Source: Paraspadella gotoi (taxonomy: Eukaryota > Animalia > Chaetognatha). Taken from it: DNA of 64,000 nucleotides. Location of the stretch: NCBI GenBank assembly GCA_051294375.1, contig CM119266.1, forward strand, positions 4,320,530-4,384,529. The letters run 5' to 3'. Numbering within the stretch: the stretch's first letter is position 1; each line of letters starts with the position of its first letter. The notes beneath the pieces were generated by a model. The model saw only the letters and a program-made list of their open reading frames with translations, made no database searches and was not told where the DNA came from. Positions 17,226 to 55,796 of the stretch are shown piece by piece. Position numbers and translations under genes: made by a program.

Positions 17226-17925
17226 CGCGGAATCAAGAGTCGTTCGCTCCACAACATTGTTAAAAATTTAAAATGTTTTTAACGTCGCGCGTTTCGACTT
17301 CGCGCTCAGCGTTTTAAGCGATATATATCTTGATACATCAATTCAATAATGAAGAAAAAACTAACAAGCTGGGTTAGATCCAACATACTTTCTTAAATAT
17401 TTTCTTACTTTTAAATAAATAACGAATTTTCATAAAATTTGAATATTCGAATCATACCATTTATTTATTTATTTATTTATTTATTTATCAAACATTGTTG
17501 GATCAATCTCATTAAACCAATAATGTATGTAGACATAAAATAAACACTTAAAATTATCAAGGTAAAATAATAAGGTTATAAAGATATCACAAATATTTAA
17601 ATGATAGTCGTTTTTGAGTTATAAATTCCAGAAATCGTTACTCAGGTAATATCAAAAATTGAATACATCAAATCAACAATATATAGATTGTTATTCAAGA
17701 ATAAATTAATGTTCAAAAGGAAACTTGAAAAATAACCGTTTGACTAAAATGTCATGTCAAAAATCAAAAATATTTTGACATAATCAGGATCAACTTTTTC
17801 GTCCAGATTGTCATTGTCGATCGCTTAGTTCGATGTTTTGGTTCGGTCAATAATATCGATGAGAGTCTAAACAAGTTTGTTAACCTTACCCATTCCCTTG
17901 GTAAGGGTAAGGGTCCCTTTGCCCT

Positions 17926-29100: not shown

Positions 29101-32017
29101 AGGGAAGTGAAGAGAGATATTTTCTAAGGCCTCTCAGCTCCTTTGCTAAAACAAGAAAATCTAGTATTTTCAATGTTTAGAATTAGCGTACGAGAGATAA
29201 AATAAAATAATAAAATACTACCTGGTGCAGAGTGAAAATCCTTTAAATTTATTTTATAGACATTATGAAAACAATTTAAGCCGTATGGGTTATCCTGTTT
29301 TATACAACACAAAATATAAAAGATACCAGTGTTAGCCCACAATATTATTCGTTTCTTCGAAAAGTAAAAGCAGGAATGAAAAATTAAAATTAGCATAAAA
29401 CTTTCTGATATTACCGTACGTATTTTACAAGGCAATATATTAAAATGCATCAAACCGCCATTTTTTTTATTCTCAATCTAAACTAAAATAGGAGAAAAAG
29501 TAATTAGCGAAAGAAAGAAGATACATCTCTCACCCTTTCCTCCTTTTGTCTTTTCTTCTTCTCCTTGGCCGCGTTGAGAGACTCGATCTCGGCCTCCAAC
29601 GCCTTCATTCGATCCTGAGCTTTCCGAATTTCCTCCGACGCTGGATCCTCGCCCTTCGCCGCCTCCGCCGCCTCAGACGGTTTCCTTGGCGAAGACTTCG
29701 GCTTCTGATCAAATTAATTATCATAATTACTATAAGTGACAAGAAATATTTAGACGACAATATTGTATCCCATTAAGATGAATTGTTGAACAATAATACA
29801 TTATTATTTAAATATTTAAGGTAAGAATAAGTTGATGATGTACCTTTTCTTTCCCGAGCGGTTTTGCCGGTGACGGCGTTCGCTTCGCTTCCACTTTTTC
29901 CTTCTCTACTTTTGCTTCGGGTTTATTCTCTTCAGTCTTCTTTCCTAACGAAGAATCAGGACTGCGGACGGGAGAATCCTGTCAAAACATTATAATTAAT
30001 TTTATAATTGTTTTTATTAGTTGTACCAATTTCTTGAGTACATAAAACTTGAAGAAAAGGGAAAGAAAGCTGGGCCTACCTGGACAGGAGTTCCCACGGA
30101 ATCTGGGAGCTCTCCCTCTTCTCCTTCAGAATCGGAACCTAGAAGCGCTTTAGGGGGACTGGGGGCTCTCACGGGCGCCAATCCATTTTCTGAAAGTAAA
30201 AAAGGGTTCAAATTAATTTAATGGCCTTTATGAAATTTCACCTTAGCCGAGTACTAAATATTGACTAAATTTAACATTAATTAATTAACTTACAACACAT
30301 AAAAAACTTTAGCGGTAATTGCAGCTCCACTATTTAACATGCGATGAGTCACATGTTTGCCATACCTAATTTGAAATACTAGGAAAGAAAGCCTTCCGTA
30401 TTTTTATTCCACCTTACCTTTTCCATCGGGATTATCCTTGGATTCGGCGGAGGTCTCCTCAACCCGCTTGTCCACGACCTGGGCCGATTTCCCCGTCGCC
30501 GTCTCCGGCGATTCGGGATTCTCCTCGGCGGCCGCAGCATCCGCAGCTGACGCGGCGTCGCGCTTGTCGCTTCGACCGTGACGGTCTTTGCCAGCGGGCG
30601 ACGATGAAGATCGCTTTCTGGGTTTGTCGGATCCGCGCTCGGGACTCTTGTTGGACTTGCGGTCAGAATGCCGCGAGATCTTGTGTCCCGGACTTCGAGA
30701 TCGCTGTCGATCTTTGCGACTCTTGGCTTCTGGACTCTGAGACCTGTTGGCTCGTTTGCCGGAATCGGAAGATTTTCGATCTTTATCTTTCTCTCGATCT
30801 TTTACGCGACTTTTCTCTTTAGGGCGGTCTCGTTCTTTCTCTCGATGCCGTTCACGCTCCTTGTCCCGATCTTTGTCGCGTTCCTTGTCCCGATCCTTTT
30901 CGCGATCTTTGTCCCGATCCTTCTCCCTCTCCCTCTTTTCTCCTTTTTCCCTCGCTCTCTCTTCCCGCCGAGAGGAGCTGGTGGATCTAGGGGGATCCCA
31001 TCGAGGGTCGAACTCTTTCGTCGACTCCGTCTCCTTGTTAGGGATTTTGACGATGGAAGATTTGGAGGCAAATCGACGTTCGACTCTTTGATCTTCCGAT
31101 TTCTCGGAGGAAGCGACTTCTTCGTCGGCGGACATCTCATCAACCTCTCCCTCTTCCTGCTCGCCCTCTCGAGAGACGTCGCCTGAAGCGAGGGTTCGAG
31201 CGCGGGCTTCGACACGCCGCGCAGGATCCGCGTGGCCGCCCGAACGATCGCGTCTTCGCCCTTCGTCTCCGTCTCGCGATCGGTCGCGAGATCGACCCCT
31301 GGTCTCGCTATCTCCGTCGTGATCAGAGGCGAGACGTTTACGCTTTAACTTTTCACTGAGATCTTTTATCTTCTTTTTCTTTCCTTCGGAATCTCTGTCG
31401 GCGTCGTCTCGTTTGTCGTCGACGTCGTCGTCGTCGTCTTCACGGTCCGAAGACTTTTGCACCTTCCGCTCTTGACCCTGAGCGCTGACGGTGATGCCCT
31501 CGACCTTCCTCGTGATGGAGACTTTGCGGACTTCGCCGCCGACGGCGTCGCTCTCTTCGTCAGACTTCTTGGAGAGGACTTTGGCCACGGCGTCTTTGAG
31601 ATCCTTCTTCAGCGGGCGAAGGTCGACGGTTTTGCCGTGGACCTCGATCGTGGCGCCCTCGTCGTGCGACTTCAGCTTTTGTCGAAGATCGGCGATGTCG
31701 AGGGACCGACGGGTGGCGCTTTCGACGCGATCCATTACGGCGCCCACGCGACGGAGAGGGCGCTCCACTTGGCGAGATCGATCGCTGCCCATGACTTCGA
31801 GGTCGTTAAGGTTGATGTCCCTTCCGTCGGAAAAGGGGTCGTCGTCGTCGGCGGCGGCGTCGAGCGGGTTATCGCGATCGTGGTAGTTGTATTTCTTGCT
31901 GGAAGACCCGCCTTTCAACTTTTCCCCGTAAGACGACTTCTGTTCTCCGGAACTCCAACGTCCCCCGAAGAAACCGGCGCTGTGACGGTTCTTGTTTCGA
32001 TTCCGCCCGCGATTCAT
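23192..32017 (-). CDS. Large (~2,300 aa) low-complexity protein (RS/RD-rich, Pro-rich, KE coiled coil) with a single B-box type 1 zinc finger; 9 coding exons
   Basis: Exons approx. 32017-30418, 30189-30080, 29978-29844, 29703-29533, 28991-28822, 28335-28109, 28043-27721, 27476-27258, 27187-23192 splice in frame. The B-box CTSCKESGVAVARCSDCKTFLCQ/SCTDAHKVMRVFDGHRVVSF spans the last intron. Confidence 0.85.
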
Positions 32018-32759
32018 CCTGATGGCAGCCAACGAAAACGCTTACAGAGTCTGCATTAGCGCTCAACCAAATAAAATAGAAAGACTAATAAGGATATCGT
32101 TCAAAAGAAAGAAAAAAGTCAGAAGCACACAAGCAAATTAACGCCTGAAAAGAAGAAAATATTTGAGAGTAAATTAATATAAGAAAATGCAACAAAAAAT
32201 AAATTTAATGAAAAATTATAGCGTCGGAGTTGAAAATCGCCGATTTGCCCTTGTTCGGATAATGATGATCACAATCGAGTTTTTTTTTCTCCCTAAAAAA
32301 GTCCAACAAATGCAAAAAAAAAATGAAGTCAAATGAAACCTGACATTCGGTGAAAAGGTTTTCCGGTCAAGAAGCCAACGGAAGACAAAGAAACCGGCGT
32401 CAAACTCGAATCGAGATGAACACAAGAGAAAATAAAGTGGAAACGAATGCACCAAGGTGACAATGAAAGAGAAGATGGCGGCGTACAAGGGGAGGCCGCG
32501 CGGTTGGAGAAGAAAGAAGATGAGGAAGAAGAAAATCATGTTGAAAGAGAAGAGAAAAAGGAAGAGGAAGAAGATAAGAAGAAGAAAATAACAATTGAAA
32601 CGAAGGGAAAAAGGAAGAGGAAGAGGAACAAAAAAGAGAAAAGTCACGATGCTTGCGGGAAAATTATGGAGAACTAGCGACATCTAATTATCTTAATTAA
32701 TAAGAATTACTTTCATAACATATGAACATTGGCAACACATCAACAACTATTTTTTTTAT

Positions 32760-32900
32760 ATTTGTGATAATCCTTTCTTTTCGTTGTTGTTTAATATTTA
32801 GAGAAAACAAAGTGTTTTTGAATTTGTTACAACGATTTATTTTAAATAAAATAAAATAAAATAAATCGTTGTCACAAATTCAAAAACACTTTGTTTTCTT
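32760..32900. mobile_element. Penelope-like terminal remnant forming a palindrome with ~40-bp arms
   Basis: AGAAAACAAAGTGTTTTTGAATTTGTTACAACGATTTATTTTA ... TAAAATAAATCGTTGTCACAAATTCAAAAACACTTTGTTTTCT, plus the reversed family tail ACAACGAAAAGAAAGGATTATCACAA. Confidence 0.6.
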
Positions 32901-33077
32901 TAATTATTTTATATTTATATATTATTATTAATATTATAATTATTATTATAATTATTATTATATATTTTTTTCTCGTTCACCTTTCTCTTTGACAACAGCC
33001 AATGACGCGAATTTTCTATTCTTGTTGTTTTTCTCCTTTCCTTTACAGAAAAAAAATATTTAGAAATAATTTCCTCA

Positions 33078-33240: not shown

Positions 33241-33253
33241 CTTGAAAACAAAG

Positions 33254-33905
33254 TGAAGAGACAGTAATTATTGTTATGTATTAGTGACAGAACCGTTCAA
33301 TATAAGCAGTCCCTGAGCTTCGGATCAGGCTGTAACACCATGTTACAGGCGGGTTAAGCGCCCCGTCCCTCTTAACTGCCAGACGACCACCGGGCTAGAA
33401 CCCCGGACCTTTGGGTTCGGAGGCGAATGACTTGCCTCCGGCACCAATGGTCGCTGATGAACGGTTGGTGGATTTTAGTCCACCATACATCCCCCCCTCC
33501 CGTAGGGAGAAGTCTGTTGCGTCTCTTCAGTGATTGTTGTTGGTGGAAAGTTCGTCACCAAGTTGAGGCATGTCGCCTGATGTGATGTGGGCGGAAAGTG
33601 CATCGCCAGGTTGAGGCATGTCGCCTGAAAGTGTTGTTGTTGCTGTTGTGTTCGGAAGTCGGGCTCACAAATAAAGAGACAGTAATTATTGTCATGTATT
33701 AGTGACAGAACCGTTCAATATAAGCAGTTCCTGAGCTTTGGATCAGGCTGTAACACCATGTTACAGGCGGGTTAAGCACCCCGTCCCTCTTAACTGCCAG
33801 ACGACCACCGGGTTAGAACCCTGGACCTTTGGGTTGGGAGGCGAATGACTTGCCTCCGGCACCAATGGTCGCTGATGAACGGTTGGTGGATTTTAGTCCA
33901 CCATA
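33254..33905 (-). mobile_element. Miniature non-autonomous LTR retroelement (TRIM-like) with tRNA-like LTRs, full copy A
   Basis: Two ~234-bp direct repeats (TATGG...TTCA) flank a ~185-bp internal region with a mutated PBS and the PPT GGGAGGGGGGA. 4-bp TSD AAAG at 33250-33253 and 33906-33909. Confidence 0.92.
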
Positions 33906-34584
33906 AAAGTGTTTTAAAACTTTGACTCTAAATTCCTCCTAACTGGAATACTTTTCTTAAAATGTCTCTCTATTAGTTTTCTACAAATGTTTTTAAGATT
34001 CCTAAAAAAAATTTTAATTCAAAATTCTTGCAGTCGTTTAGGCTGCAACTCTTCAAATTCAGTGTAGATTCAGTGTAGCTCGAATTTCTTTACCATCTAT
34101 TTAACCAAAGATTTTGTTCACAATTGGAAATCCAACCGAGTGATAAGATTAATTGTTTAACTCTGTCCTTCAAAATTTCTCTTTACCGTGTTTTAACTTT
34201 TTACCTACAATTTTTTAACAACTATATAAAAAAGATTTTTTAAAAAATGTGCTTACCGATTTAATTTTACACTTTTCTCATTTACGGATTAAAAAAAATT
34301 ATGTAAAATGGAATGTTTACATATAAAAAAAACTAACTTTTTTTTGTGATTACTGATGACTACGATATATTTCTTGATGTGATAGCTGTAATACATAGAA
34401 GTTTACGAATAGTGAAGCTGAATGACCCTTCCTCTTAAAATAAATTCTTTTGGCGTTTAAAATCTGCTGTGTGTCTATTACCACATTTAAAAAAAAACAA
34501 ATAAATTCCTTAGTCTCTATACAACATTTTAACAATTGCACTATTTGATTCGCAAGAATATTTACATTGTTGTCTTTAAAAAAA

Positions 34585-34990
34585 CAAGTATGAGGAAACA
34601 TTGTCGGATCTTCCTACGATAATTAAGCGGTAATCAGCTTATCAGACGATAAATCACGATAAATCTTTCAATTAATGATCCTATCTGATCATAACAGATC
34701 GTACCATACCAAAACAGTGGCTGCGCCAATACATGTAAATCGCTTGCAAGGGATTAAACTGAACTTTTTTCAACTCGCATCATTTTTTCAACTTGCATAA
34801 TTTTTTCAACTTGCATCATTTTTTTAAATTGCATCATTTTTTCACTTTAATTAATTATTTAATTAAATCATTTATGAGTAAGCATAAATAATAATTAATA
34901 AATATTCAAGTAAATGTGGCTTATGTTTTTTCCATTTAAACTCATTTCTACTGGTAAAATTCCATCGAAACTTTATATCTAGCTCTAACT
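34585..34990 (-). mobile_element. HINE-like fragment
   Basis: The terminus AACAAGTATGAGGAAACATTGTCGGATCT, the CAACTTGCATCATTTTT repeats and a partial core unit are shared with 2886-3240 and 6900-7330. Confidence 0.65.
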
Positions 34991-37459
34991 CATAACTGCC
35001 TCTTTACTTTAGAAGGGAAGTCTGGCGTTAAGCTTCCGAGATAAAAATTAGCGAATAAAAAAGTTGTTATTTTACTCACTGAATAAAAATACTTAAAATA
35101 CTTGCAAAATACATAAAATTGATAAAATTATTATTGTGATAACATTGTCCAATCACATGCAATATATCTAGTGCCTTTTTATTCATTGAAATCGATAGAT
35201 ATTAACTAAAAATATTAGAATTAATTTTTCTTTTTGATATATAAGAGAACCGAACTTTCGTCGCTTGATGTCATCAGGTTACTAGTAAATATTCGTTTGA
35301 GGATTCCAAATCTGTTTTTAAAATTGACCTACGTAGACGCGCATAGACGCGATATGCCATGAAAGCAAGTTGTTTGGTTCCACTTAAATTTTTAGCTTCG
35401 GCCGAGTCACTTAATTGGTAATAAAAAAATTGATTTTCTTTGATATCTTTTGAACCAAAAATGATAGAACGATAAGACTGGTATCATATTAAAACCATAA
35501 TTATGGGGCATCTTTTCCATATAATTTTTTAAAAATGTTTCAAAGGATTTTTTTAAAATCTTGATCGGAATCTTAGTCAAAAGTAAAACAACTTTTGAAA
35601 TTAAATTAAACGCACTTGGCCACATTTAAAAAAATAAATAGAATATAGATTCTGAAAGAGAAAAGATTGAATTATGTTTGTGATATAAAACAAAAATTTT
35701 CTATACCTCAAATGTTTATATAATTACTAAGGATAATGATTATCATTTTGTTGAAAACAACAAAATTTAAAAAATTCATATGATTTAAATATGATAATTT
35801 AGGTGAGGCCAAACTTCGTCAATGGGGTGGGTTCAAACAGTGATGTTTGAGTTTGAGGCGAACTCTTTAGTTCCGAATGAGCATAAGTTAGTACATGAGT
35901 CAGTACGATGGTGCTGGAAGCGAACGAGCCTTTCGCATGAATATGGAGCATATTCTTAGATGTGATTCACAAGCAAAGCATTAGTGAATCATAGATTATT
36001 TTGTAATAGTGTATACGTGCTAAGGGCTGTTTAAGAATATCAGCTGATGCATGGAGCAGACATGTCCGCAATGGACTTTGCATTTTTTGAGTTGAATAAC
36101 TTATTTCATTATGATATAGGAATAGCAGATGATCAACGATTGCTTATGTGAGGATGAATAGGCTGTAGTCCTGAGACAAGCGATAACTGGGTGCATTCGT
36201 CGATAGTGGCTGGGTGTTGCATACTGCTACTGTGATTTTACAATATGAGGTATGTTGAATAGATGAAAGGTCAAGAAAGTATGAGCGGCTGTGAGAGATA
36301 TTAAGAATTGAGTAAACATAACCTTAGAGAGAAAAGATCGATCAGTCTAATCATCTATTGCATTATCGATAGATTGGTTAGTCGAGTTGGGTCGTTTCTA
36401 ATTCTTCTAGTTAATATTAGAAGGCAGATGCCAAAATTGTGTGATAAAAAGGTTGTAGAACTTGATGAGTTATACATGAAAAATAATAGGTGTGTTGTGA
36501 TCATGTTATGAGTTAGTATAGCGCTTGAATAGCTTTTTTTAAGGTCACTCTATCAGAATCAATATTTAAAGAAGAACTTCTGAAATATATACAAGAAACG
36601 GACGAAGTGTTGTCTTGTGGGACATTTATAGTATGTGCAAGACAGATTACTTACAACGGAATCGAAATGAGCGTGTAAATAGTTAGAGGCGTGACATTAC
36701 TATAGCTGTCAATGGCGTGTTTGGAGACATGGATTGTGCGAAAAATAGAATAGATGGTGACGCGGTTCGTGTACAAATGAACTGTAGATAGACGCGCAGA
36801 TAATATGAGTTAGTTCAATAGCTGTTCCCATTAAAGGAATATTGAAATTTGGTCGGCTACCGCTAATTTAGGAGTTCAAACCTTTTGTTCGCCCTCGATG
36901 TCTTAAAAAAATTTTTTCAATTTTTTCAATTTTTCAATTTTTCAATTTTAAAAAATTTAAAAATTTTTTTTTTCTTTTTAATTTTTAAGATTTACCTGTG
37001 TCTACAAGGCCTGGCAGAAAAAAATTATTACAATTTTTTTTTAATGTCATAATGCTATCATAAAATAATTTTAATGCTAACGATGTCTGCTATATGACTA
37101 TATAAAAAAAAATTTCTTAATAAAAATAAAAAATCACCAGACTATCTTAACTTTAGTTATAAAGTCATTCAGTAATATACTTGAGCGCGGAATTAATACC
37201 GTTGGTCAATTCTTGAACATACCATTATGTACAAAACTTTAGTCTTGATGTCTATTTTCAGGTAGAAAATAGTTTGTTTTTTTTAAATTTTAATTTTAAT
37301 GCTTTTCTTGTTGCTCTCAAAGTTAATATATTATTATATAAAGATACAAATTTTTTAATCAATCTTAAATTATTTTTGATTTTTGATTCTAATAGAGCAC
37401 AAAAAGTTAAATAAAAAATATAATTACAACTTTTTAGGAGAAAAACAATTTTTATTTGT

Positions 37460-38176: not shown

Positions 38177-41100
38177 TTATTTTGGCTTCTTCTTTGGTTT
38201 TTGCGATTGTGGGACTTTATTCCAATACTTTTTAACTGTCTTTGAGTAAGCCTTATATTTCTTTTTGTTCTCCCGTCGCAAATCGGGATCAGTTTCCATC
38301 TCAGCTTCACAAATGAAAAAACTCTTCCAGTGGCAGGGATATGAGTACCAAGTCCATTCTGGCTGAAAATTATGTTTTAATAATATAACATTTGTATAAT
38401 AAAATAGATTTACATAGGTCGTGTAATTTGTTGAAGGGATACAGTAACAGTTTTAAGTATTAGTACTTTTAACGGTTCATACTGAGGTTTTGGCAAAAAG
38501 AAATACGAAAGATCATATCCGATATCCGAAAACCTCATCTTATTACAGCCAGATAAGTGAAATAAAAAAAATGTTAAAAGTTAATAATCTCTAGAGTTAT
38601 TGTTATCATAAGTTTTATATTCCCAAAATTTTCCCCTTTTACGTCTTATTATTAATAACTATTGGTATTGCAAAATCTCTAATTTCAAACACCTGGATTC
38701 TTTCATCATAATTTAATCTTTTTGCTTGGTTGAAGTGGGTAGCAAGATTGATGCAAAATGGAACTCTTTCGTTTTCAAGGGCTTGAATATTTTTATTATT
38801 TCTTCTAAAAAAAAAATAATAAAAAGTCTATCCCGTCTTGTTAAATTGTTAATTTCAATCTTACGACTTTTATATTAAACAATTTTTCAGTACTTACGCA
38901 TATAAAGTAAAGTTGCAATGTCTTTCTTGTGGGTTCGCCTCTGGAAAAAAAAAATTCATGAATCTCTAATTGCTTAATGCTGACGTAGATCAGAGAGGAC
39001 TTGCTCATTTGTTTCGACTGGACAATCGATTTAGATTTAGAAAGTTACAAACATGCTTAACGATTGAATTTAATCTAATTTAATTCCATCTAATAGTCTT
39101 ACCTAAAAATTTTTTTGGTGAATCCTCGAGAAAATAATTTCTATAACTTGTAAGGACAATGCTTTCTTCGAGTTCCAAAAGTCTAGGAAAATAAAGATGA
39201 AAGCGTAATAAGTAAGTAATAAGTATTGTCATGTAAAATTTAAAAAAACAGCCCTTTGAATTCAAATAATTTTTAGAGCTGTTGTTTTTCACTTTACGGT
39301 GAAGCTTTGTAAAGTATTCACCTCTTATTTTCTTTTTTTTTCTCGACTTGAAATCGATCTGTCCATACATTATATCGCTTTTCTAAAAGATTAACACGTT
39401 TTTGAGGACTCTCCCGTTCGACATCCCAACATTCCCCAGAAAGTACAACTGTTTTCTTTACGTCTCCTTGAAAAAATTGTGCAATTTTATTTTTTTATTT
39501 TTAATAGATTCATATCAACTAAACCAAATGTTAATGCTATGGTGGACTAAAATCCACCAACCGTTCGTCAGCGGCATTGGTGCCGGAGGCAAGTCATTCG
39601 CCTCCCAACCCAAAGGTCCGGGGTTCTAGCCCGGTGGTCGTCTGGCAGTTAAGAGGGACGGGGCGCTTAACCCGCCTGTAACATGGTGTTACAGCCTGAT
39701 CCGAAGCTCAGGGACTGCTTATATTGACCGGTTCTATCACTAAACACATAACAATATTTACTGTCTCTTCATTGGTGAGCCCGACTTCCGAACACAACAG
39801 CAACAACAACACTTTCAGGCGACATGCCTCAACCTGGCGATGCACTTTCCGCCCACAACACATCAGGCGACATGCCTCAACTTGGTGACGAACTTTCCAC
39901 CAACAACAACAATTCACTGAAGAGATGCAACAGACTTTCCCTTACGGGAGGGGGGGATGTATGGTGGACTAAAATCCATCAACCGTTCATCAGCGGCCAT
40001 TGGTGCTGGAGGCAAGTCATTCGCCTCCAACCCAAAGGTCCGGGTTTCTAGCCCGGTGGTCGTCTGGCAGTTAAGAGGGACGGGGCGCTTAACCCGCCTG
40101 TAACATGGTGTTACAGCCTGATCCGAAGCTCAGGGACTGCTTATATGAACGGTTCTATCACTAACACATAACAATATTTACTGTCTCTTCAATGCTAATG
40201 TAAATGTTATTTCTACATTACAATTGTGCATAATAGTTTTTTGCTAGAATTCTGTGTGTTTTTTGTTTGTGTTTGATGAAAACTTTATACCGGCCTTTGT
40301 TGGTATAGTTTTTTTTGCCGTCGTCCATCGGAAATCATTAAGTCCCGTTTGACAAAATACATTTTGAGGGTAAACATTTGGCGATTTGTCAGTTGTAATC
40401 CACAAATAGTCCATAAAATATGACAATGTTAAATCTTTAGCTGGAAAAAATGAAGAATTAACAAAAATTATTTTAACAAGCAAAAAACATTCAATAACCA
40501 CTTATAAAAAGAGTAAACTGAAGCATAAAAAAGTAAAAAGAACAGCTAAAGAAAATAATACTCTTCATAGAATTGTTACTTACGATAACCATAAATGCAT
40601 TTCCTTCCTCCTATCCAAAATTCATCATCATTGTGGTAAGTAAGGTTTGGTACTTGAAAGCGAAAGCTAAGAAGATAGGAAATTTAAATTAAACTGCACC
40701 ACTATACAAACAGCTTCCGTTATTAAGATCATAGTTTATGTCCAACAGGACGATTGTCAATTATGATTGAGTCACTCAATTTGAGTGACTATTAAGGCGG
40801 AACAAGGTAAAAACTAAGAGTTCTGTCATATAAATAACGTTAAAGCATCCTTGTGGGATAACGGAATTTAAAAAAAAATTAAGATTTTATGTATAGTTAA
40901 TAGTTAATAACTAATAATTAGTTATTAGTTAATAACATAGAAGCATTTAAAGTTTATCGTATTACTATAAATCATGAAAATTTTATATTTCAAATTCAGA
41001 ATTTTTAAAAACGGATATTTGACGAAATAAAAAATAAAACCGTTGATGTAAAAAGACTTTGTCTTTAATCTCAAATAACACAAACACAACGAAAAAAAGA

Positions 41101-44100
41101 TTAATCACAAATATTAAATTGATAAATATTTTTAATGAGCCTTATTCTTCTTTTATTAGAATATATAATTATATTGTAAAACTAACAAGTTTGAGGAAAC
41201 AATTTTGGATCTGCCCACGATTATTATCGGTAATTAATTAATTAATAATTAGATTATTCAAATTAATTAATTAATTAGGCAATTAATTAATTGATCCCAA
41301 ATGTTTGTTTTTAGGTCTTTTCATCACTAACCACGACAAAAGCAATACGACGCAGAGACAGATCACGCTTAATTTCAGGTGCACGAAAAATAAATTATAA
41401 ATAAATAAATTATAAATAAATTATTGTTCATTGAATTTACTTTGTCTGACCGTTTGTACTAACAAGCCATCCCTTTCTGACAATTATGCTGGACAATTAC
41501 ATGCAAAATATGATTCGGCTAGAATGATACAGTAAAATACAGTGTAAAAGTTGAAATTTGGACTAGATACTTTGTTTCTCTGAATTCTTAAACCATAAGC
41601 CATAAACGAGTAAGACGATGGGTACAACTGAAAGTGATATGTCTGTAAATGATAAAAAATATATTTTTATATATATTTTTAATGTGTAACAACGAATTTT
41701 TATTTCATAGGGACATATTTCGACTCTGATGAAGACTCTCAACCACAGAGTCGAAACATGTTCGTATGAAATAAAAATTCGTTGTTACACATTAAAAATC
41801 TGTTATTCCTTAAACACAAACACAACGAAAAAGAAAGAATCACAACAAAGTTTTTATTTTGCAATTTAGGTATTATACAAATAGGATAAATTTAGATACT
41901 CCCGCTTTGCCGAAATTTTTATTTAACAAAGATTTGTACTGCGTAGTTCAAATCCTTAGTTCTCCGATGATAAAAAAAGTTATTTTTTTGCATAACTTTT
42001 GAAAGAAAAGAGATAGGATGGTGGGCGAGGTATCAAATTAAAGCCATAATCATGGGACACCTTTTTGAAATAGTTTTTATAAATTTTATCCAAAAATGTT
42101 AGGACAGGATTTGTTTAAAACCTAGTTAAAAGTATAACAGTTTTTGGAGTTAAAATTTTTTATGAAAGCATATGAATTCTTTTGTTTTTCTTTCGGATTT
42201 GGAAAAAGGAAAGACTGAATTAAACTTTGATTACCAATAAAGCTCTTTTACTCCATAAATTTGCATGTATTTTTTAGTTAAAGTAAAAAAAACAAGCAAA
42301 AATAAATATAGCAGCATGATAAAATGTTATTTTAAATATGTAAAATTATAAATTAAAAGTTATTTTCAGTTTAATATAAACAGTTTGGTTGTCTACCTTT
42401 TTGTTTGTGAAAAAATAATAATCATTTTTCATTATTTTTAATTGGAAACAAAAAGCTTGACCCACTGCTTGTTTATTAAATTTTATTTTATTTTAAGCTT
42501 TTATCATTTTTTTTATATAAAACATCTAATATTCTGAATTTGGGCAAAGCTTTACTTCTTTAAAGATTTGGAAAAAAATATTCGACTTGACCAATAGGGT
42601 GGAGTGATGAAAAGATTGAGCGATGGAACAATATTTTTTTGCTGCCTTTGTATATGTAATAAAAAATAATTAAACCCTTTTTCAAAAAAAATTTGCATAA
42701 CAGTATCATTAATTGATTTTTTTTATAGTAATATCCTTATAAAATTATAAAATTTCAAAATCATATTTTCTTAATTTTAAAAACAGTTTTGGATTTGCCG
42801 GAAAAAACTGAAAAACTTTTGTAAAATATGTTACATGATATTTTTAGGTTAAAGCTGCGAAAAATGATTAAAAAGTTTCATCATATAATAGTTTCTACTA
42901 CAAAGTGTAAAAAAGTAGAGAATTTGACCTTTTTTTCTATTTTTGACGCTGAAGACATTGAAATTTTTAATAACATATTTTATATTTTTGATCTAACTTT
43001 TTGTGAAGAATCAGAATCTTTAACAAAATTTTTTTTAAAAAATTCTTTTGAAAATTTATGATTTTATAAGAATATTACTATAAGTATATTGTAATTAATG
43101 ATACTGTTCCCCAAACAATATAAGCAAAATATTTTTTGTACTCCTTAATCATACTATCTCACGTTTAAATATACTTGTTTGATCACTCAAATAAAATTTA
43201 TGTTCCCCAGTGCTCCACTCTATTGACCAATGGTCATTCAGAATTTTAGTTTTGCATAAAAAATAAAGATATCAAAAAACTAAAAACATCAGATTGTTCC
43301 AAAATCGAATGCCTGGAATCTGATATTTTTTAAAATGCAAAATTTTGGTTCATAGTCTAGATCTAAAATTCTGAACACAAAAATGTTTTTTTAGAAAAAT
43401 GAATTATTCTATCTTTTTCAATAATTAAAAATTAATTAAGCATATTATTCTTGCATATTAAACAGCCAAATTTATCATGCATATTGGCAAAAGAGTGCTT
43501 TTTTGAAAAATCTTTTTGAAAATCTTTGCTGTTGATGATGATGGTCTATTACAATGCACAAGTTCAAATATAGATAAAAAGAAAAAATTCTTTTGTAATT
43601 CTAGTATCATAATTTATTTGTATATTTTGTACTATTCCCAGATAAAAAAATATTTACTAATGGGTCTGAAATATTGTTCTTTTTCTGTAGATAATGAATA
43701 TCTATTGTTAAAGCTCATTATGTACATTCGTAAGGTAACCAAGGCTCTTAACATAATGCTACTACAATTTTTTGTAAGCATTTTTCTGGACTTTTTGTCA
43801 GATTTCTTCTTTTCCTGACCCTATTGCCCTTCTTGTGGGCGGTTGACACTCATGGAGATAGTACCTTAGGTCTCCGAGTACCAAACAACAACTATAGCTA
43901 AAAGATTATGAATCAAATATGGCGACGAGTGAAGTAAAAATGATTATAAGTAGGGTGGGAAGCAAATTAAGCGTGATCTGTCTCTGCGTCATACGAGGAT
44001 GAGAATAATGCCGATAACGATTGACTTGATTGATTGACTTATTAATTAATTATTGATTAATAATTTGATTAATTAAATACATCCTGCATTTACATTTAAT

Positions 44101-45834
44101 ATAAAAGGAAAAAGAAGCATAATCAATTAGTGAAACAGGTTTTTTGTTTTTTCCATTTAAACTCATTTCCACTCAGACGATTCCATCGAAACTTGATTTC
44201 CAGCTTAATCACACACTTTCCTACCCACATACAAAATTCAAGGTGAATCGCCCCATCCACTCATGAGCAATTGGTGTTCAAATAGTGAAATATATTTCTT
44301 TGTTTTTTCCATTTAAACTCATTTCCACTCGGACGATTCATCGAAACTTCATATCCAGCTCAATCACACACTTCCCTACCCACACACAAAATTTCATTCA
44401 AATCCATCCATCCAATCACGAAAAATTGGTGTTTTTTGCTAAGATGGGACGGACGGACGGACATCATTTTTTTTGCATAATTTATCATAATTCGATGTTC
44501 TGACATGATATAAGTGTGTGCCCGACAATATTGAGGGGGCGGACCGACAAAGTGAACTTTTGAGTCGGGATCTGCTGATAAGCAGATCCGACTAAAAACT
44601 CAAATATCTGCGATTCAAACAGCTAAAACATACTTATATTGTTGAAGCCTTGTTAATTGTGCCGCCACTCTATGAAATTCATTTCCAGTTTCCGGAATAA
44701 ACAAGTAGCTTTTTTTAATTTTCTTTCCCGGCTTTACTTTAGTGCCAATAGCAGCATTGTTCAAATTAGATTTCAGTGACTCGCATTCTTTCTTTGCATT
44801 CCACCAAGTTAACCGCTTAGCCTATAATTTCAAGATCAGACAAAGATTATAATCTTTAATAGTGCTGTATTTTTTCCAGTAGCAGCTAAAGAAGTTTTGT
44901 TACACGAATTATTAAATATATTGAAGAGACAGTAGTAATTGTTATGTGTTAGTGACAGAACCGTTCAATATAAGCAGTCCCTGAGCTCCAGATCAGGCTG
45001 TAACACCATGATACAGGCGGTTTAAGCGCCCCGTCCCTCTTAACTGCCAGACGACCACTGGGCTCGAACCCCAGACCTTTGGGTTGGGAGGCGAATGACT
45101 TGCCTCCGGCACCAATGGCCGCTGATGAACGGTTGGTGGATTTTAGTCCACCATAATATATTAAATATTCAGTTAGGTTTTCGGGGAGGTTATAATCTAT
45201 TTTTTGCGCCTTGTCGGTTGTGAGTTCTCAGATGTCACGTAATAAACTTACATTTGGGAGCGTAGCAAACCAATAACAATGAATATTTCCATTCTCATCG
45301 TAATAATAATACCAAGGATCTGTCTTATAAAGTGGGGGACATATAGAAGCACTTGACCCCCCAAACTCCAGCTGGTTAAGATCAATATTAATATTAATAT
45401 TGTAAAGAGCAATATTAATTACACAGAATTTATATATAAGATGCAGCTGTATGTATTGGCAAACAGCTAATAAATTAATTATTTGCAATTGACCTTTGAT
45501 CCTTCACCAATTTCACCTATACCGCCATACAAGATTAAACGGAAACATAAAAAAACTGTAGCAAATATAATCATCCATAAAATTAAAGCCACTATTCTTC
45601 CGGTTAACGGGCTTCCCTAAAATTGATGTATGATGGAATTTTATAAGATATAAATTTGTGAAATGTTTCGAAACTTATTGATATAACCTTGCAACAATTG
45701 TTTCCTTTTTTCTTATCACCAAGCGATTCTTCTACTGTTGGCGTCGGCGATGATCCCCTGACACCATAACGTTTGAGCCGACGAACGGCTGAGGGAGTCG
45801 AACCCTTTGAAGAATCTGATACTGTGGATGACAT
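38177..45834 (-). CDS. Type II transmembrane C-type lectin-like protein, 458 aa, 11 exons, with an expanded CTLD
   Basis: Exons 45834-45688, 45616-45494, 45371-45252, 44821-44634, 40666-40584, 40440-40291, 39466-39322, 39182-39103, 38940-38898, 38804-38693, 38362-38177 all splice GT-AG in phase. TM segment IVALILWMIIFATVFLCFRLILY. CTLD hallmarks CPP..PW..HCYWF, LTWWNAKKEC, YLFIPETGNEF, FWIGG, FCINL, WYSYPC..FFICE. Confidence 0.85.
39538..40191 (+). mobile_element. Miniature non-autonomous LTR retroelement with tRNA-like LTRs, full copy B (in lectin intron 6)
   Basis: LTRs at 39538-39771 and 39960-40191. PBS TGGTGAGCCCGAC at 39773-39785. PPT GGGAGGGGGGGA before the 3' LTR. TSD ATGC on both sides. 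Confidence 0.93.
41183..41348 (-). mobile_element. HINE-like element, first half (interrupted by the 41349-43990 insertion)
   Basis: Starts with terminus AACAAGTTTGAGGAAACAATTTTGGATCTGC. The sequence TTTAGGTCTTTTCATCACT..GACAAAAGCAA matches 6655-6695 and resumes after 43990. Confidence 0.7.
41676..41848 (+). ncRNA. Minimal hammerhead-ribozyme core within a Penelope-like palindromic remnant
   Basis: CTGATGA(41726-41732)-A-GACTCT-caaccac-AGAGTC-GAAA-CATG-TT, inside an inverted repeat with ~52-bp arms (41676-41798), followed by the family tail ACAACGAAAAAGAAAGAATCACAA. Confidence 0.62.
42595..43222 (+). mobile_element. Non-autonomous hAT-type MITE, copy 3
   Basis: TAGGGTGGAG...CTCCACTCTA with perfect 8-bp TSD TTGACCAA. 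Confidence 0.92.
43991..44598 (-). mobile_element. HINE-like element, second half (two core units, GGAC microsatellite, terminal stem-loop)
   Basis: Highly similar to 6720-7545. Ends GTCGGGATCTGCTGATAAGCAGATCCGACTAAAAA. Confidence 0.78.
44922..45155 (-). mobile_element. Solo LTR of the tRNA-like miniature LTR element (lectin intron 3)
   Basis: Single 234-bp unit TATGG...TTCA with TSD ATAT on both sides. The B box reads GGTTCGAGCCC. Confidence 0.92.
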
Positions 45835-46375
45835 GTTTAATCTTTTATTAAAAGCAGTTTTTGAAGGGCATCGAGTATCAGTTAAAACTAAGGTCGTTTC
45901 TCTACTTAGGTTTTTAGTTGCTGTGATGTACATGAAAAGTTACGATCATGATGTTGATCAAAGTCAAGAGCGAAACTGTAAAATATTAGGGAATTACTTG
46001 TTTTTGTGTCTTAGATTTCAAGTTGATAAAAATTGGTAATAATTTGGTAAAATATTGTTATGTATATATTGGTTAAACAATGTCACATCTGATTGTTTTT
46101 AACTTGAAGTCATATAAATAATCTGGAATACTGCGAAATTGCTGCCATTACAATTACGCGCGTTTATTTTCAGCTAATTATCTTTGCTTTTGTTGTCTTC
46201 TCGAAAATACATTGTCATGCAATTACCGATCAGAAAAATCGCTTCTCCAATTGAAATATCTAAAGAATCCAAAATTTTTTTCTCTCTTTTCCAGTTATGT
46301 CCCTTTTTCGTTTATTTGGAAAAGGGAAATTATAAATTGCCAACCATTTAAAATCACGTATAAATCGAAAAAACA

Positions 46376-48317
46376 ATGGAACAAATAATTCAAGAAAATC
46401 AATCTTGCTTTAAATACGAAGTCCAAAAAGTCGAATCGGGTTTGACCCGACAACATCGGTTCCAGAAAGAAAAAGAAAAAGTTAACCAAGACGCGTCGAC
46501 GCAATTCGCGATTTCCAAAGATATCACAAATGAGGCTTGGGATAAAGTTCATATCTACTGGACAAACGTGATCAAATTCTCACTTTTTCACGTCGCCGCG
46601 GTCTATGCCCTGGTCTTCGAGGTGAAAGAGTCAAAATGGAAGACGCTTCTCTGGTCTTATCTTCTTTATCTTTTCGGTAAGACATTTCTCTGGGTTTATT
46701 TGTAAGGCGGGAGGGTTCGTTAAATACAAAAGTTTATTTCAATGCTTTAGGCATGATCGGTGTGACAGCGGGGACGCATCGACTTTGGGCCCATCAAACT
46801 TACAAAGCTAATTTTCCCCTGCGCTTTATATTGGTCTTTCTACAGACCCTGGCTTTCCAGAATGATGTTATAGAATGGGTCAGAGATCATCGTGTTCACC
46901 ACAGATTCAGGTAATTTCTGAAACAGTTATAGACAAATGAATTACTAATAAATTTTAAAACTTACTGTGGTTTACTGTTCAACGTTAGATTTTTTTGGCG
47001 TGATAATACAATAGTGTAACAGAATTTATGACTTTCGTCGATTCTTGTAGCGAAACTGATGCAGACCCTCACAACGCCAAAAGAGGATTTTTCTTTTCCC
47101 ATATCGGTTGGGTTTTACAAAAGAAACATCCCGATGTCACAACAAAAGGAAAGCACGTGGATATAAGTGACCTCTACAGTGACCCACTTCTTGTTATTCA
47201 AAGGTATTACATTTATATTTATAGAGACATTTGTTTTTAATCGCTTTTGACGTTTAAAAAACTTTTTACAATTTTTTATATATTCTTACTTAACCCCTTC
47301 AGTCTAACTATTAAAAAGATGAAATCTGAAATGTTGGTGACAATTATTACCTAAAACTAAGACAGTATGTAAATGGTTTCAGAAAATTTTACAAACCGTT
47401 GGTTGCACTGATATGCTTCATTATGCCTACCGTCGTACCGTATTATTTCTGGAATGAAACTATTTGGAATGCGTAAGTTAAAAAATTTAATTACGACTCT
47501 TTAAAAAGCGTTTCTTTCCATCCATACTTCAGTTTATTTATGTCCATTGTCCATATCTAGTTATTTCGTCGCCGCAATCCTTCGTTATTGCATCTGCCTT
47601 AATTGCACCTTTCTTGTCAACTCTGCGGCGCATCTGTGGGGGACGCGTCCGGTCGATAGGAAGTTGAATCCCGCCGAGAATTTTATAGTCAGTCTCGTCA
47701 CAACTGGGGAAGGATGGCACAATTATCATCATGCATTTCCTCAGGTAGATCTTACGTTTCCGCTCTTGATCGAGAGATAATTGGATAAATCAAATCACAT
47801 TTTTTAATTGGTTTGTTATGTAACATCACTCTACCAGTTTGTTATGAACGCAAATAACTGTTAAATGAGGCAATGAAAGCTGATGGTCAAACTGACTAAA
47901 ATCTGATGAACCTAATAAACTAATGAAAAAAAAAACACTCTTTTATATAGATTCTGTTGCTTTCCTAGTCAAATTTTTTTTACATTTACATATTTTCCAA
48001 TTTTTGACTTTTTTCTTCAACATCTTAATCGAAATTGTTGTAAAATAGTTCCTAAGATTTTTAAAAATACATATATAATATATATTCCTCACAAGGATTA
48101 CTCGGCGGCGGAACTGCGGTTCCCCATAATTTCATGGGCCTTCAACGGAGCGACCCACTTCATCGATTTCATGGAGAAAATCGGTTGGGCGACAGATTTG
48201 CATCGCGTGGATCCTGACATCGTGGAGAGAAGAAAGAAGCGTTGTGGGGATGGAACCACAATGGTGGACAACATCAGCCTCAGATGGAACGGCGCTGAAC
48301 AGTCAAAGAGTGATTGA
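46376..48317 (+). CDS. SCD: Acyl-CoA delta-9 desaturase (stearoyl-CoA desaturase family), 6 exons
   Basis: Exons approx. 46376-46676, 46751-46910, 47051-47202, 47383-47472, 47533-47744, 48096-48317. His boxes GTHRLWAH, DHRVHH and GEGWHNYHH, plus ETDADPHNAKRGFFFSHIGW and VNSAAHLWG. Confidence 0.95.
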
Positions 48318-49118: not shown

Positions 49119-52100
49119 TCAGCTACTCAAATCAGGATCGTTGTGTTCGACCTGACATCTGCGACACAAATGTCGAATCGCTTGGACGACTTCGCTTTCG
49201 AGAATCGCAGGTCCGCAGTCGGCCAGATTAAGGATGTGAAGTCCAGGCGCCGCGGAGGCCATCTTCAACAGTCCTAGAGATGTAGAAAGATCATTTTATA
49301 GTCAAAACTTAAATCGCGTATGCGCCTTTTTATAAATGTTACAATCTTACCCGCTGGCGTGACCGTCTTGCAGCCAGCCAAAGATAGGCGCCGCAGACTG
49401 GCGCCGCATCCTTGAACGAGCGCCGCAAGACCGGCGTCACTGACGTCGCAACGTCCGGCGTCGAGGGCACGTAGCTTGAAGCAATGACGTCCCAACCAGA
49501 CGAGGGAAGCGTCAGATACGCCACAGCACCCGCGAACGTTTAAATACCTGGAACATAGTTTAGATAATCTTTTTATATAACTGTCGCAACAGCCAACTTT
49601 ATTTTATTGCTAGTCCGGAGTATATTCCGAAATATAATACTTGAGTGAGTGGTCCTTTTATCAAACTTACAATTGAAATACAGAAATGAGATACCCCTTT
49701 TTTGTAATCAGAATCTGTTCCCACAAAACTACCCGATCGAATTTCATGAAATTTTACATGTCCTAATGAAACTAAAATTGAAAATTTTTTTGCTAATTAA
49801 TCGGTGTTTGAAGATGCATGGTTCATCTTTTTTCTCCCAATTTTCCAGAATTATTCCAAATCTGACTCTAACCGCTGATGTTCATGAAGCTGAAACTTAG
49901 GTAAATTAATGAGTAATTAATATTTTTGTGGTAATAAATACGTTTATTAGGAAAAAAAATTTTGAACATTTTTTGCCCCTATGGGGCCCCTCCTGGGGCC
50001 AATTTCTCGGCTCAGGGGTCAAATATTTCATTAAAATCTATTCAGTAGTTTTCTCGTAACGTGTTCTGGTCACAAAAAAGGGGTACCTCATTTTACAATA
50101 TGAAGCCTTCTGTATAGAACTACTTTACTAAAGGGATGTCAGATACACCGGGAGTAAATAAAGTTCACTATGAATCTTGATTGAAAGATTTGCCGGGTCC
50201 TGCTATGTTATTATTTCTTAACCCATTACAGGTTGTCTTAAGATAGCTTACATTGTAACAAATATATAATTTTTATATCGTTTGAAATTTAAAAAAATAA
50301 GGCTACTGATTAGCGCCATCAATCTGACCTCAATTTGTGGCAGTTTTGAGCGACGCATTTGACGCCATCGTCCGAGATAGCGTCGCACTTAGCGGCGCTC
50401 AAGTAGCGCAAGTTTGAACCCAAAATGGTCAGGGCGCGAAGAGACGCGTCCGTTATCTGGGTAAAATGGAAATTAGCGGTCTAACGAAAACTGTTTCTTT
50501 TCAACATTTTTTCTTTTTAACAGTTAAGAAATTTCAGTTAAGAATTGAAATTGATAATATTTAACCTGTTGGCAATCAGCGACGGACACTGCTTGCAAGC
50601 GTCTGCAATTTGTCGTCAGCTGCACGATACCAGAGTCCGTCACATTAGTGCAACGTCGCAAATAAATGTGGGTCAGTTCCGTGCAGTACGTAGTCAGAAT
50701 CTGGAACCGAAAGAATTACATTTGCATAGAATCGATAGATGTAGAATTACATTTTTATTGTAGAAAAAGAGATCTAAATAATCATTAAAAAAAGAATTAT
50801 TATCATGTGAATCGATAATATGCATCAAAGTAATTCAAAGAATTGAGGCACACATCATCTCACCTGAAGACCGCGGTCGTCCAGCGAGGCGCAGTCGCTC
50901 ATGTCGAGATATCGGAGCATCACTTGCCGAGAATCCGCACCGGCGCCGGAGACGGCCAGCGCCATTAGAGCTTCCGGCGTCAGGCCGATGCAACTGACCG
51001 AAGTGCAGCCTAAGAAGACGACAGAGGATTTATGTACAGTACATTGTGCACTAAAGCGTAAAAAAAATATTAAAAGCAAGTATGTAGAATCAAATTCAAA
51101 TATTTATGAACAATTATTTTTTATTTTTCAGTATTCGCATCAACCCTTATTTATACATAATAATTACTCACCATAGAAAAGGTCAAAATTTTTTTTTTTT
51201 TTTTTGAAAAATTTTTTTAGGATTTTGACCCACTTAATCAAATAATTTTCTTTTTATTAACTTTTTGCGAAAAAAAATTAAATAAAATAAAAATTTTGAA
51301 AAGTCTTAATAAATGAATTTTTGATTAATATTTATATTTTATTTTATCAACTTTTTATGAGGAATTCTAATCTGCTTTTAAAACTAAGAACTAACTATTT
51401 TAAAATTTTAAAATATGGGTTAAAGCGAAAATAGAAAAACTTAAATTTTTTTTTTATATATCAATATTATTTAGTTCAAAACTTCATGGTCAACTATTTG
51501 AATTTTGATCTGCAACTTTCACTACGCCTTATTGTACACCCTACTAAATACATACTTTCAAATGAAGATCTCAGTAATCGTAACATTGTAAATTTTTTCG
51601 TCCTGTATGAATCTCTGATATCATGTTGAATACGCAATTCATTTAAATTAGAGAAATTAAAATTTTTCAACTACTACACTCAGAAAAGATTCTTATTTCA
51701 TTTTTAGAGTATTGAAACCATGTAATAAAAGTTGATGGAACTTCGTAATAATCGTAATATGTACGCCGTCGCCTGAATCCCTTACCCGCCAAATCGAGTC
51801 GTTCCAAATTAGTACACGTGGACACGACAGCGAAGAGACCAGAGTTGGTGACGTTGAGGCATCCGACGAGAGAGAGGAAACGAAGCTCGGGACAAGATCG
51901 AGAGAGAACAAGGACGCCCTCGTCGGTTAATAAACGACAACCTGGAAACGAGAAATTATTACTCTATAATTTTTACAACCATTATAAAAATTATCCATTC
52001 ATTAACTAAATAAACTATTTTCCCTTCGGACTTTGGGCAGACTTGCTACCTACTATCATCTAATGATCTATGAAAAGACAGCTGCGGGGCGAGAAGCCTC

Positions 52101-55047: not shown

Positions 55048-55068
55048 TCTTGCTCGCTGATTGGTCAA
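54981..55068. repeat. 39-bp tandem repeat (~2.2 copies)
   Basis: GATTGGTCGACGCCGCGTCCAGCGA(A/C)ATTCTTGCTCGCT x2, then GATTGGTC. Confidence 0.9.
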
Positions 55069-55796
55069 GATCGGCGGCGCCGCTTCTTCGCAGTGGAATC
55101 TCGCGCGGTTTTGATGATGGTGAGGATTTAGACGAGGGACTAGATGAGCAGCGGCCGAAGGGGTGGATTCTCCGGATAGCGGGGGTGGTGGGTCGGGGGA
55201 GAGTGGCGGGGGTGTTGAGATGGATAGCGGGGTGGTTGGGATGATGGAGAAGAGCTGGAGGATCCAGGGAAGGCGATGTGGTCGAGTGAGTGACCATCGC
55301 GTCGCCGGTCATTTCTGGGGGGAAAAAGGAAAAAAGAATAATTGATATTTTTATTTTTATTTCTTGAACAAATTAACAGGTCACCAATTTTGAAAGTTAA
55401 AAAGTAGAAAAATAGGTGAACATAATGGTTACCTACAAACAGATTAAATTTGGCATATAGGTTTAGAGACCGATCTAATATAAAACAAATTTTATCTTAA
55501 TTATAAATTCTCTAGAACAAGATACATAAAGCAAAACATATGAATGTTGAAAGGAAATGTAAGACGCATTCGTGTTACTATACACCAAAGCTCACTGTAG
55601 CACGAACGGCACAACCTTCTCTCCCGCCCACCAATTATCACAGCCATCACATATATCACAAATGTTTCGTGAAACGTGGCTCCCGAAAAACGGTTTCCTC
55701 ACTCGACGAAACTCTTACTCCAGCCTTATCCTTTTTACTCATTCGAGCAACGCGGAAAACGAATAATTCAAACGCTAAACGAGATCTCGTAACAGC

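Follow-up and report, generated by a model that had tools for sequence, protein, structure and literature searches.

A miniature LTR retrotransposon of the chaetognath Paraspadella gotoi with a tRNA-like module and a candidate twister ribozyme in its LTRs

A 64,000-nucleotide stretch of the chaetognath Paraspadella gotoi (GenBank assembly GCA_051294375.1, contig CM119266.1, positions 4,320,530 to 4,384,529 of the forward strand; hereafter the window) contains two full copies, A and B, and one solo long terminal repeat (LTR) of a short non-coding element. An earlier sequence-only reading had described it as a miniature LTR retroelement whose LTRs carry a tRNA-like RNA polymerase III (Pol III) module, and had overlooked its most informative feature, a twister-type fold in each LTR. 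The element is almost certainly a mobile, protein-free miniature retrotransposon with terminal repeats (TRIM) of the Helenus kind, and the LTR fold is very probably homologous to the twister ribozyme. With rather less than even confidence, we propose that the whole may be an animal LTR retrozyme, in which each LTR would carry a Pol III promoter of tRNA type together with an active twister, giving rise to a 420-nt circular RNA copied by a Gypsy element.

Twister-type fold of the LTRs

The twister-type region is 76 nt long and starts two bases past the tRNA-like module. In the 5' LTR of copy B it occupies 39644-39719 on the plus strand in the P5 permutation, with P5 formed by 39644-39649 and 39714-39719, GA and T1' at 39657-39661 and loop L4 at 39700-39707; a P3 hairpin and P4 are also part of the fold, and the predicted cut lies between 39668 and 39669. 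In the 3' LTR of the same copy the fold is at 40066-40141 (plus), with the predicted cut between 40090 and 40091. Copy A lies on the minus strand, where the fold of the 3' LTR (33305-33380) has an intact core and that of the 5' LTR (33723-33798) has one change that breaks a T1 pair. The equivalent region of the solo LTR (44973-45048, minus) is decayed. The order of the parts is P5, P2', GA-CGG, a one-pair P1, UAA with the cut after the U, P2, GC, an 8-bp P3, a 5-bp P4 closing the loop U-CCG-AAGC, and P5'. These landmarks agree with the Rfam consensus lines and with the Schistosoma mansoni table of PMC8501958. The fold shares with Twister type P5 (RF02684) and type P1 (RF03160) the UAA, the GC, the U-CCG-AAGC loop, GA-CGG and P4, as well as the P5-first order; in sequence, its P3 is similar both to the P1-type consensus and to the examples from S. 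mansoni (PMC8501958).

A descriptor was written that asks for UAA, GC, a U-NNN-AAGC loop, GA with a Watson-Crick T1 partner, a P4 of at least 3 bp and a P2 of at least 2 bp. It matches three of the five LTRs, on the sense strand only, none of 200,000 dinucleotide shuffles of the LTR, and nothing else in the 64-kb window; the other two LTRs fail it. The catalytic residues and loops (UAA at the cut, the general-base G and L4) and the pseudoknot positions are intact in three of the five LTRs. Both pseudoknots are able to pair (T1 as CCG/CGG, T2 as GC/GC), and for the inner pairs of P3, P4 and P5 the predicted values are 0.97-1.0.

The descriptor was calibrated on phage loci, 25 of 47 of which passed; all 20 of those sent to Rfam were twisters. 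The phage twister L267 has a one-pair P1 and was called as P1 type below the gathering score, and another, L272, has a 3-bp P2. It is noted that on the phage contigs of L207, L267 and L275 twisters stand back-to-back in tandem, joined by a one-pair P1. A pattern with the T1 pair of the LTR itself gave 66 viral loci, many of them near-identical copies, of which 50 passed the descriptor; 10 of the 20 sent to Rfam exceeded the Twister-P5 gathering score. Phage Twister-P5 loci with CCG/CGG are L321, L324, L328, L333, L351, L363, L369, L375, L378 and L381. As Rfam scores phage loci with CCG/CGG, the T1 pair of the LTR is a natural one. A P4 of 5 bp was reached by one of 151 loci with a window-like primary pattern in two scans. 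None of the 31 loci from a metagenome scan for ribozyme relatives passed the descriptor, and a scan in the P1 order gave six loci, two of which (L386 and L388) were sent to Rfam and remained uncalled.

A model of 20 phage twisters including the T1 variant, with hand-set structure (R2), placed four LTRs in the expected register, three at 21.4 bits (E 0.0017) and the 5' LTR of copy A at 18.1 bits (E 0.011), whereas the best background scored 8.7 bits and the solo LTR 7.2; the E-values are rough, R2 was a second attempt, and its training loci came from patterns made with the window motif in view.

Variation in the family provides a further line of evidence. Eleven public runs from five studies match the stretch wholly or partly. 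Matching contigs number 18,394, 2,790, 1,079 and 2 in four runs, figures that are not copy numbers; run X1 is possibly the sample behind the assembly itself. Two runs with small shares, X10 (2 contigs) and X11, were excluded from analysis. No RNA-labelled run is listed among the matching runs, and X9 consists of contigs for which an RNA origin is only a guess. At a level of at least 4%, there are 14 family-wide variant rows, nine of them at eight positions of the twister region. Four of these positions lie in loops or linkers and two are the partners of one T1 pair; of the remaining two, one belongs to the loop-closing pair of P3 and the other to the terminal pair of P5, where the change is mostly G-U to A-U. 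Ten of the 76 positions are loop or linker, and the chance of four of the eight variable positions falling there is P 0.009, calculated post hoc. No family variant at the 4% level affects UAA, GA, GC or AAGC, and all core positions other than the two T1 CpG positions are invariant at this level in four runs. The partner variants of the T1 pair make up 13% and 7% of depth in X1; in the remaining three runs their shares are 3-6% and at most about 1%. These changes could mark a compensated subfamily. Some contigs in X1, X2, X5 and X9 match at only about 80% over the LTR length (for example, 33 differences in 171), which points to diverged subfamilies.

In addition to the limits of R2, several results weigh against a twister, or against an active one. 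Rfam reports no twister in the window at E-values up to 5 or 10. An earlier model (R1), made from 21 phage twisters with automatic structure, ranked four LTR copies first at E 0.09-0.13, in the wrong register. P2 has two stacked pairs with a bulge or mismatch, compared with three to four in 21 of 21 natural examples. A competing hairpin occupies T1' and P2, and the native-compatible fold is 7.7 kcal/mol worse than the optimum; this penalty has a median of 3.1 kcal/mol in natural twisters and is larger than 7.7 in one of 21, pseudoknots not being modelled. The phage locus L052, the single descriptor pass among the 120 loci of the first viral scan, is not a twister by Rfam. Because the two T1 partner variants have unequal shares and are both CpG changes, they do not show covariation.

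The swapped T1 pair was considered as the cause of the Rfam miss and set aside, because phage twisters that carry this swap receive good Rfam scores. The likelier cause is the combination of minimal P1, short P2 and long P3, which distinguishes the LTR fold from Rfam twisters and places it below Rfam detection. Weak Rfam matches to aCoV-5UTR, sR38, P26, RsaF and BSR0709 are far below their gathering scores and were taken as chance.

It is distinctly unlikely that the fold is an inactive relic, captured with a short interspersed element (SINE) or decayed, within an ordinary Helenus TRIM that is copied from uncut transcripts. The Rfam miss, the 2-bp P2, the competing fold and the failure of two LTRs would fit a relic, and in a family that is young and conserved along its whole length, a conserved core is a weak discriminator. 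However, a relic would not be expected to keep every catalytic and pseudoknot position in three of five LTRs, nor a core that, apart from the two T1 CpG positions, is invariant across four runs. Natural twisters tolerate flaws in P1 and P2, though not changes of the catalytic A and G or of the pseudoknots, and of the natural twisters tested about 94% cleave, the ones flawed in P1 and P2 included (PMC11662667). The twister of the LTRs probably still cleaves.

Element structure and tRNA-like module

Copy B (39538-40191, plus strand, 654 bp) is flanked by ATGC at 39534-39537 and 40192-40195, and copy A (33254-33905, minus strand, 652 bp) by AAAG at 33250-33253 and 33906-33909. The solo LTR (44922-45155, minus strand) measures 234 bp. 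BLAST of copy B against the window returned these locations as first read; the five LTRs and two internal regions are all of its matches, with no further fragments in the 64-kb window, and copies A and B are 94.8% identical. A different 4-bp target-site duplication had been assigned to each of the three insertions. The duplications are exactly 4 bp at A and B, but the solo LTR stands in an AT run compatible with 2, 4 or 6 bp.

The five LTRs are 232-234 bp long with the termini TA...CA, beginning with TA instead of TG. In copy B, the 5' LTR (39538-39771, 234 bp) is separated by a single T from a primer-binding site (PBS, 39773-39785), and a polypurine tract (PPT, 39946-39957) is followed by TG and then directly by the 3' LTR (39960-40191, 232 bp), all on the plus strand; both sites are where the first reading had placed them. 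The PBS appears to be of tRNA-Trp type, since the first 14 bases of the internal region agree at 13 positions with the sites of Trp type in Gypsy-32-I_NVi and Helenus-2_SyJa (Fig. S2 of PMC10886601). In copy A (5' LTR 33672-33905, 3' LTR 33254-33487, minus strand) there is one change in the PBS and one at the end of the 5' LTR. The non-coding internal region of copy B holds 2.2 copies of a 48-bp unit (39804-39908, plus). The longest stop-free stretches of the copies, 79 and 90 aa, have no Pfam match, and the element is without protein coding. A hairpin with an 8-bp stem is found at the extreme start of each LTR (39540-39559 in the window), upstream of the tRNA-like module.

Among 21 variable columns of the four paired LTRs, four separate B from A, none separates 5' from 3' LTRs, none is crossed, and 17 are singletons, in agreement with the copy-diagnostic variants noted earlier. 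The pattern fits LTRs rebuilt from one template per insertion; gene conversion would give the same pattern. Within the pairs, copy B has five mismatches and four gap columns and copy A has eight mismatches, which indicates young, though no longer fresh, insertions. There is no doubt that the family is abundant, and its ends are fixed. Contigs with mixed flanks end loosely at 39537-39538/39960 and at 40191-40193 in X1, X5 and X9, with agreement of 0.40-0.55; among the matches listed, there are 111 (X1), 62 (X5) and 22 (X9) such contigs at 39960, and 63, 44 and 13, respectively, at 40191. An LTR that is mostly a tRNA-like head with a structured body is SINE-like, and the copies might accordingly be regarded as tandem SINE dimers or a chance arrangement. 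The chance of this is practically negligible: the element has a unique internal region with PBS and PPT, a CA end, 4-bp duplications and no tail, the ends are fixed in three runs, and LTR pairs agree within a copy.

The tRNA-like module of the 5' LTR of copy B, placed by LTR alignment, lies at 39571-39642 (plus), with an A-box-like motif at 39578-39589 and a B box at 39622-39632; its acceptor stem has lost one base. The other modules are at 39993-40064 in the 3' LTR of copy B, at 33382-33454 and 33800-33872 in the 3' and 5' LTRs of copy A (minus), and at 45050-45122 in the solo LTR. The sequence-only reading had given one string for all LTRs. The module is indeed present in the LTRs, but the exact string is not in every one of them (copy A has GCGACC). 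GGTTC is found in four of five and is absent from the 3' LTR of copy B, and the box A pattern has no exact match. The B box had been given with G or T at one base; the G form, which is the consensus, is confined to the solo LTR.

ARAGORN at default stringency calls no tRNA gene, and the Rfam tRNA model has no match in the LTRs. With relaxed settings, ARAGORN reads LTR positions 34-106 as a cloverleaf with a broken anticodon stem in four of five LTRs, at scores of 85.5-87.7 (threshold 100). Two of these readings are Gly, as had been suggested, but the others are Trp and Arg, and the tRNA-Gly label is weak. The covariance-model check proposed at the outset was thus negative with Rfam, while shuffle tests still support a decayed tRNA module. 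The ARAGORN score is matched by 21 of 3000 shuffles for the 3' LTR of copy A and by 62 of 3000 for the solo LTR. A B box together with a closed 7-bp acceptor stem occurs in three of five LTRs, and in 40 or 99 of 50,000 shuffles. The real LTRs did not pass a strict test of T-arm geometry, their T-loop being displaced by one base; the test was repeated with an offset of 12-14, the same for data and shuffles. The 3' end of the tRNA-like part differs from the PBS, and self-priming by this part was therefore rejected.

Judged from its sequence, the module is genuine though decayed. It is not itself a tRNA and is likely a promoter. Two features count against the promoter: the A box is degenerate and departs from the TRGCY/YGG pattern of most Helenus elements, and the B-box base is non-consensus in both full copies. 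If the module were not a working promoter, the ribozymes would release the element from Pol II or read-through transcripts. Such a source would also suit the lack of a tRNA call at default stringency, and transcription of retrozymes is thought to include read-through (PMC7761336). We consider this very unlikely, as both the acceptor stem and the B box have been retained, and variants common in the family turn an acceptor-stem G-U into G-C (at 33383, 66% of depth in X1). Schistosome SINEs are a precedent for a Pol III promoter followed by a ribozyme (PMC6765202).

Proposed cycle and related elements

We give about an even chance to a cycle of Pol III transcription, double self-cleavage, circularisation and copying by a Gypsy-type helper, modelled on the plant LTR retrozymes (PMC4918200). 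Pol III would start in the 5' LTR, close to the 5' end of the tRNA-like module, and would encounter no run of four T (T4) on the sense strand. The twister of each LTR would cut between U and A to leave a monomer of 418-422 nt without terminal repeat, and P5 would re-form between the monomer ends, keeping them adjacent for ligation into a circle. Host tRNA-Trp would then prime at the PBS. The reverse transcriptase of the helper would cross the junction, so that two identical LTRs would be rebuilt without the usual first strand jump, and the helper integrase would insert the DNA with a 4-bp duplication.

The predicted cut-to-cut units are 39669-40090 (plus, 422 nt) for copy B and 33356-33773 (minus, 418 nt) for copy A. 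For the excised unit, renewed pairing of P5 is predicted, at 0.86-1.0 for five of its six pairs, and the predicted sequence of the circle junction equals the genomic LTR sequence. A circle is a plausible retrozyme template because the cut monomer lacks a terminal repeat (PMC4918200). A Ty3/gypsy partner had been suggested from the start. The primer site is indeed of Gypsy type, but no reverse transcriptase or integrase domain was found in the 27 ORFs or exons of the window that were scanned, and a helper is not seen in the window. The LTR also has a 9-bp inverted repeat, between positions 22-30 and about 188-197, which forms in the unit of copy A but not in that of copy B; with six of 200 shuffles matching it, it is weak.

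Two findings count against this cycle. The excised unit is not unusually structured (z -1.48), with its circular fold matched by eight of 100 shuffles. The absence of T4 from the element is not significant, as 485 of 5000 shuffles also lack T4.

Alternatively, the twister may cut and the template may nevertheless be linear, with transcripts cut only in the 3' LTR and an ordinary strand jump. Slow or partial cleavage would leave a terminal repeat of about 100 nt, from the tRNA-like part to the cut, and the ribozyme would replace the terminator. No T4 run occurs on the element's sense strand, and the next one lies 6, 46 or 294 bases downstream of the copies, so a built-in 3' end would be useful. 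Many published Helenus LTRs, compared by eye, have a T run after the tRNA part that is missing here, and the short P2 and the competing hairpin could slow cleavage. On the other hand, the layout of P5 is expected to keep the cut ends next to each other, and since neither the fold nor its upstream context differs between the two LTRs, cutting in the 3' LTR only is not favoured. We regard a linear template as unlikely; for the circle as the main route, the case is evenly balanced.

Animal Helenus elements are TRIMs with tRNA-derived LTR sequence, 4-bp duplications and primer sites common to Gypsy elements (PMC10886601). The Paraspadella element falls under this definition as far as testable, and that part is already known. 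The suggestion of a possible new family accordingly holds for the family sequence, which is apparently new, but not for the design, already published as animal Helenus (PMC10886601). Like Helenus (TRIMp3), the element is a short non-coding LTR-PBS-PPT-LTR arrangement, its size is inside the Helenus range of 311-1263 bp, some wasp families also begin with TA, and the tRNA-like part is unmatched to the element's own PBS (PMC10886601). In contrast, no listed Helenus consensus resembles the LTR (by eye, with fungal families compared by motif only), and the A box is more degenerate (PMC10886601). In the parts of PMC10886601 used here, the word twister has no occurrence and no ribozyme is mentioned in Helenus; three twister loop motifs gave one match in its supplement, in an internal region and not in an LTR. 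Pol III transcription of Helenus itself is also unproven (PMC10886601).

It should be mentioned that the LTRs of Helenus-2_SyJa and Helenus-2_SyUm from Synergus wasps contain an apparent complete type III hammerhead behind the tRNA-like part (sequences of PMC10886601). This was read by eye against the hammerhead consensus: the core, three stems, a cleavage triplet and complementary loops on stems I and II. Both resemble the Paraspadella element in the tRNA-Trp primer site and the lack of a T run after the tRNA part, but have a hammerhead instead of a twister, which goes unmentioned in the consulted parts of PMC10886601. The Rfam hammerhead models have no match in the Paraspadella LTRs.

Plant LTR retrozymes are likewise non-coding, with a ribozyme per LTR, PBS, PPT, a 4-bp duplication, a Gypsy-type helper and a cut-to-cut unit without terminal repeat (PMC4918200). 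They differ in that their ribozyme is a type III hammerhead, their primer is tRNA-Met, and their LTRs and units measure 300-400 bp and 600-1000 nt, respectively; their circles have been shown experimentally, and no tRNA-type promoter is described for them in the material used from PMC4918200. By analogy, the Paraspadella element would work like an LTR retrozyme and yet fails the hammerhead and tRNA-Met features. Animal retrozymes have been described without LTRs, PBS and PPT (PMC7761336). Perere-3 of Schistosoma mansoni, an animal retrotransposon with twister variants at the 5' end, is in contrast an autonomous non-LTR element with a single 5' ribozyme of P1 type (PMC8501958).

Cassandra and Ajax (5S-derived TRIMp3) also have a promoter derived from a small RNA in a TRIM LTR, but Rfam 5S has no match in the Paraspadella LTRs, and Ajax duplications are 5 bp. 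The stretch 39644-39663 may resemble a 5S box A region. A 12-mer shared with Ajax LTRs, noticed by eye, was discounted, being of a length that chance could give among many published consensus sequences by a rough estimate. A twister in an LTR element, or a ribozyme in a tRNA-bearing TRIM, was not found in the full-text literature, with subscription journals and Repbase outside this scope and most matches judged by listing.

Surroundings in the window and implications

On one side of the insertions is a long minus-strand ORF (30404-32041) and on the other are exons of a fatty-acid desaturase (about 46364-48317, plus strand), with the solo LTR 1.2 kb upstream of the first desaturase-like exon. 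Beyond these exons is an F-box/LRR gene (49274-55372, minus), which faces the desaturase. The long ORFs at 23192-27187 and 30404-32041 (minus; 1331 and 545 aa) are of low complexity and have no Pfam match. A homologue of DNAJC5/cysteine-string protein is present as a single open frame at 16692-17267 (minus); among the 120 matches listed, it is 44-59% identical to relatives, those named being from fish, mites, crinoids, birds and a tunicate.

Other repeats were also observed. A dispersed repeat with 155-bp tandem units occurs at 6831-7410, 44076-44433, 3437-3595 and about 34900-35000, with an AT-rich microsatellite preceding it and a GACA/GGAC microsatellite at 7354-7410; it is reminiscent of non-autonomous Helentron/DINE-1-type elements. 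A repeat resembling a miniature inverted-repeat transposable element (MITE) is found at 400-1049, 1426-2005 and 42595-43244, with internal inverted arms at 504-648/769-913. Near-perfect short palindromes with arms of 52-72 nt at 32793-32908, 41675-41799 and 49684-50093 are possible small MITEs. An 18-bp tandem repeat family lies at 3045-3266, 3636-3728 and 34729-34878, in both orientations.

If the fold cleaves, the Paraspadella element would be an LTR element from an animal whose ribozyme is of another class and whose promoter is of Pol III type. Helenus and retrozymes, so far separate lines, would be joined by it, and the twister would gain a second concrete role in retrotransposition. Self-cleavage could also explain how the RNA ends of a Pol III TRIM are set when a terminator is missing. 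Rfam-based annotation overlooks this ribozyme-type motif although the repeat is very abundant. If true, and taken together with the apparent hammerheads of the wasp elements, the finding would mean that Pol III TRIMs have repeatedly recruited different ribozymes, with a circular template replacing the terminal-repeat strand jump.

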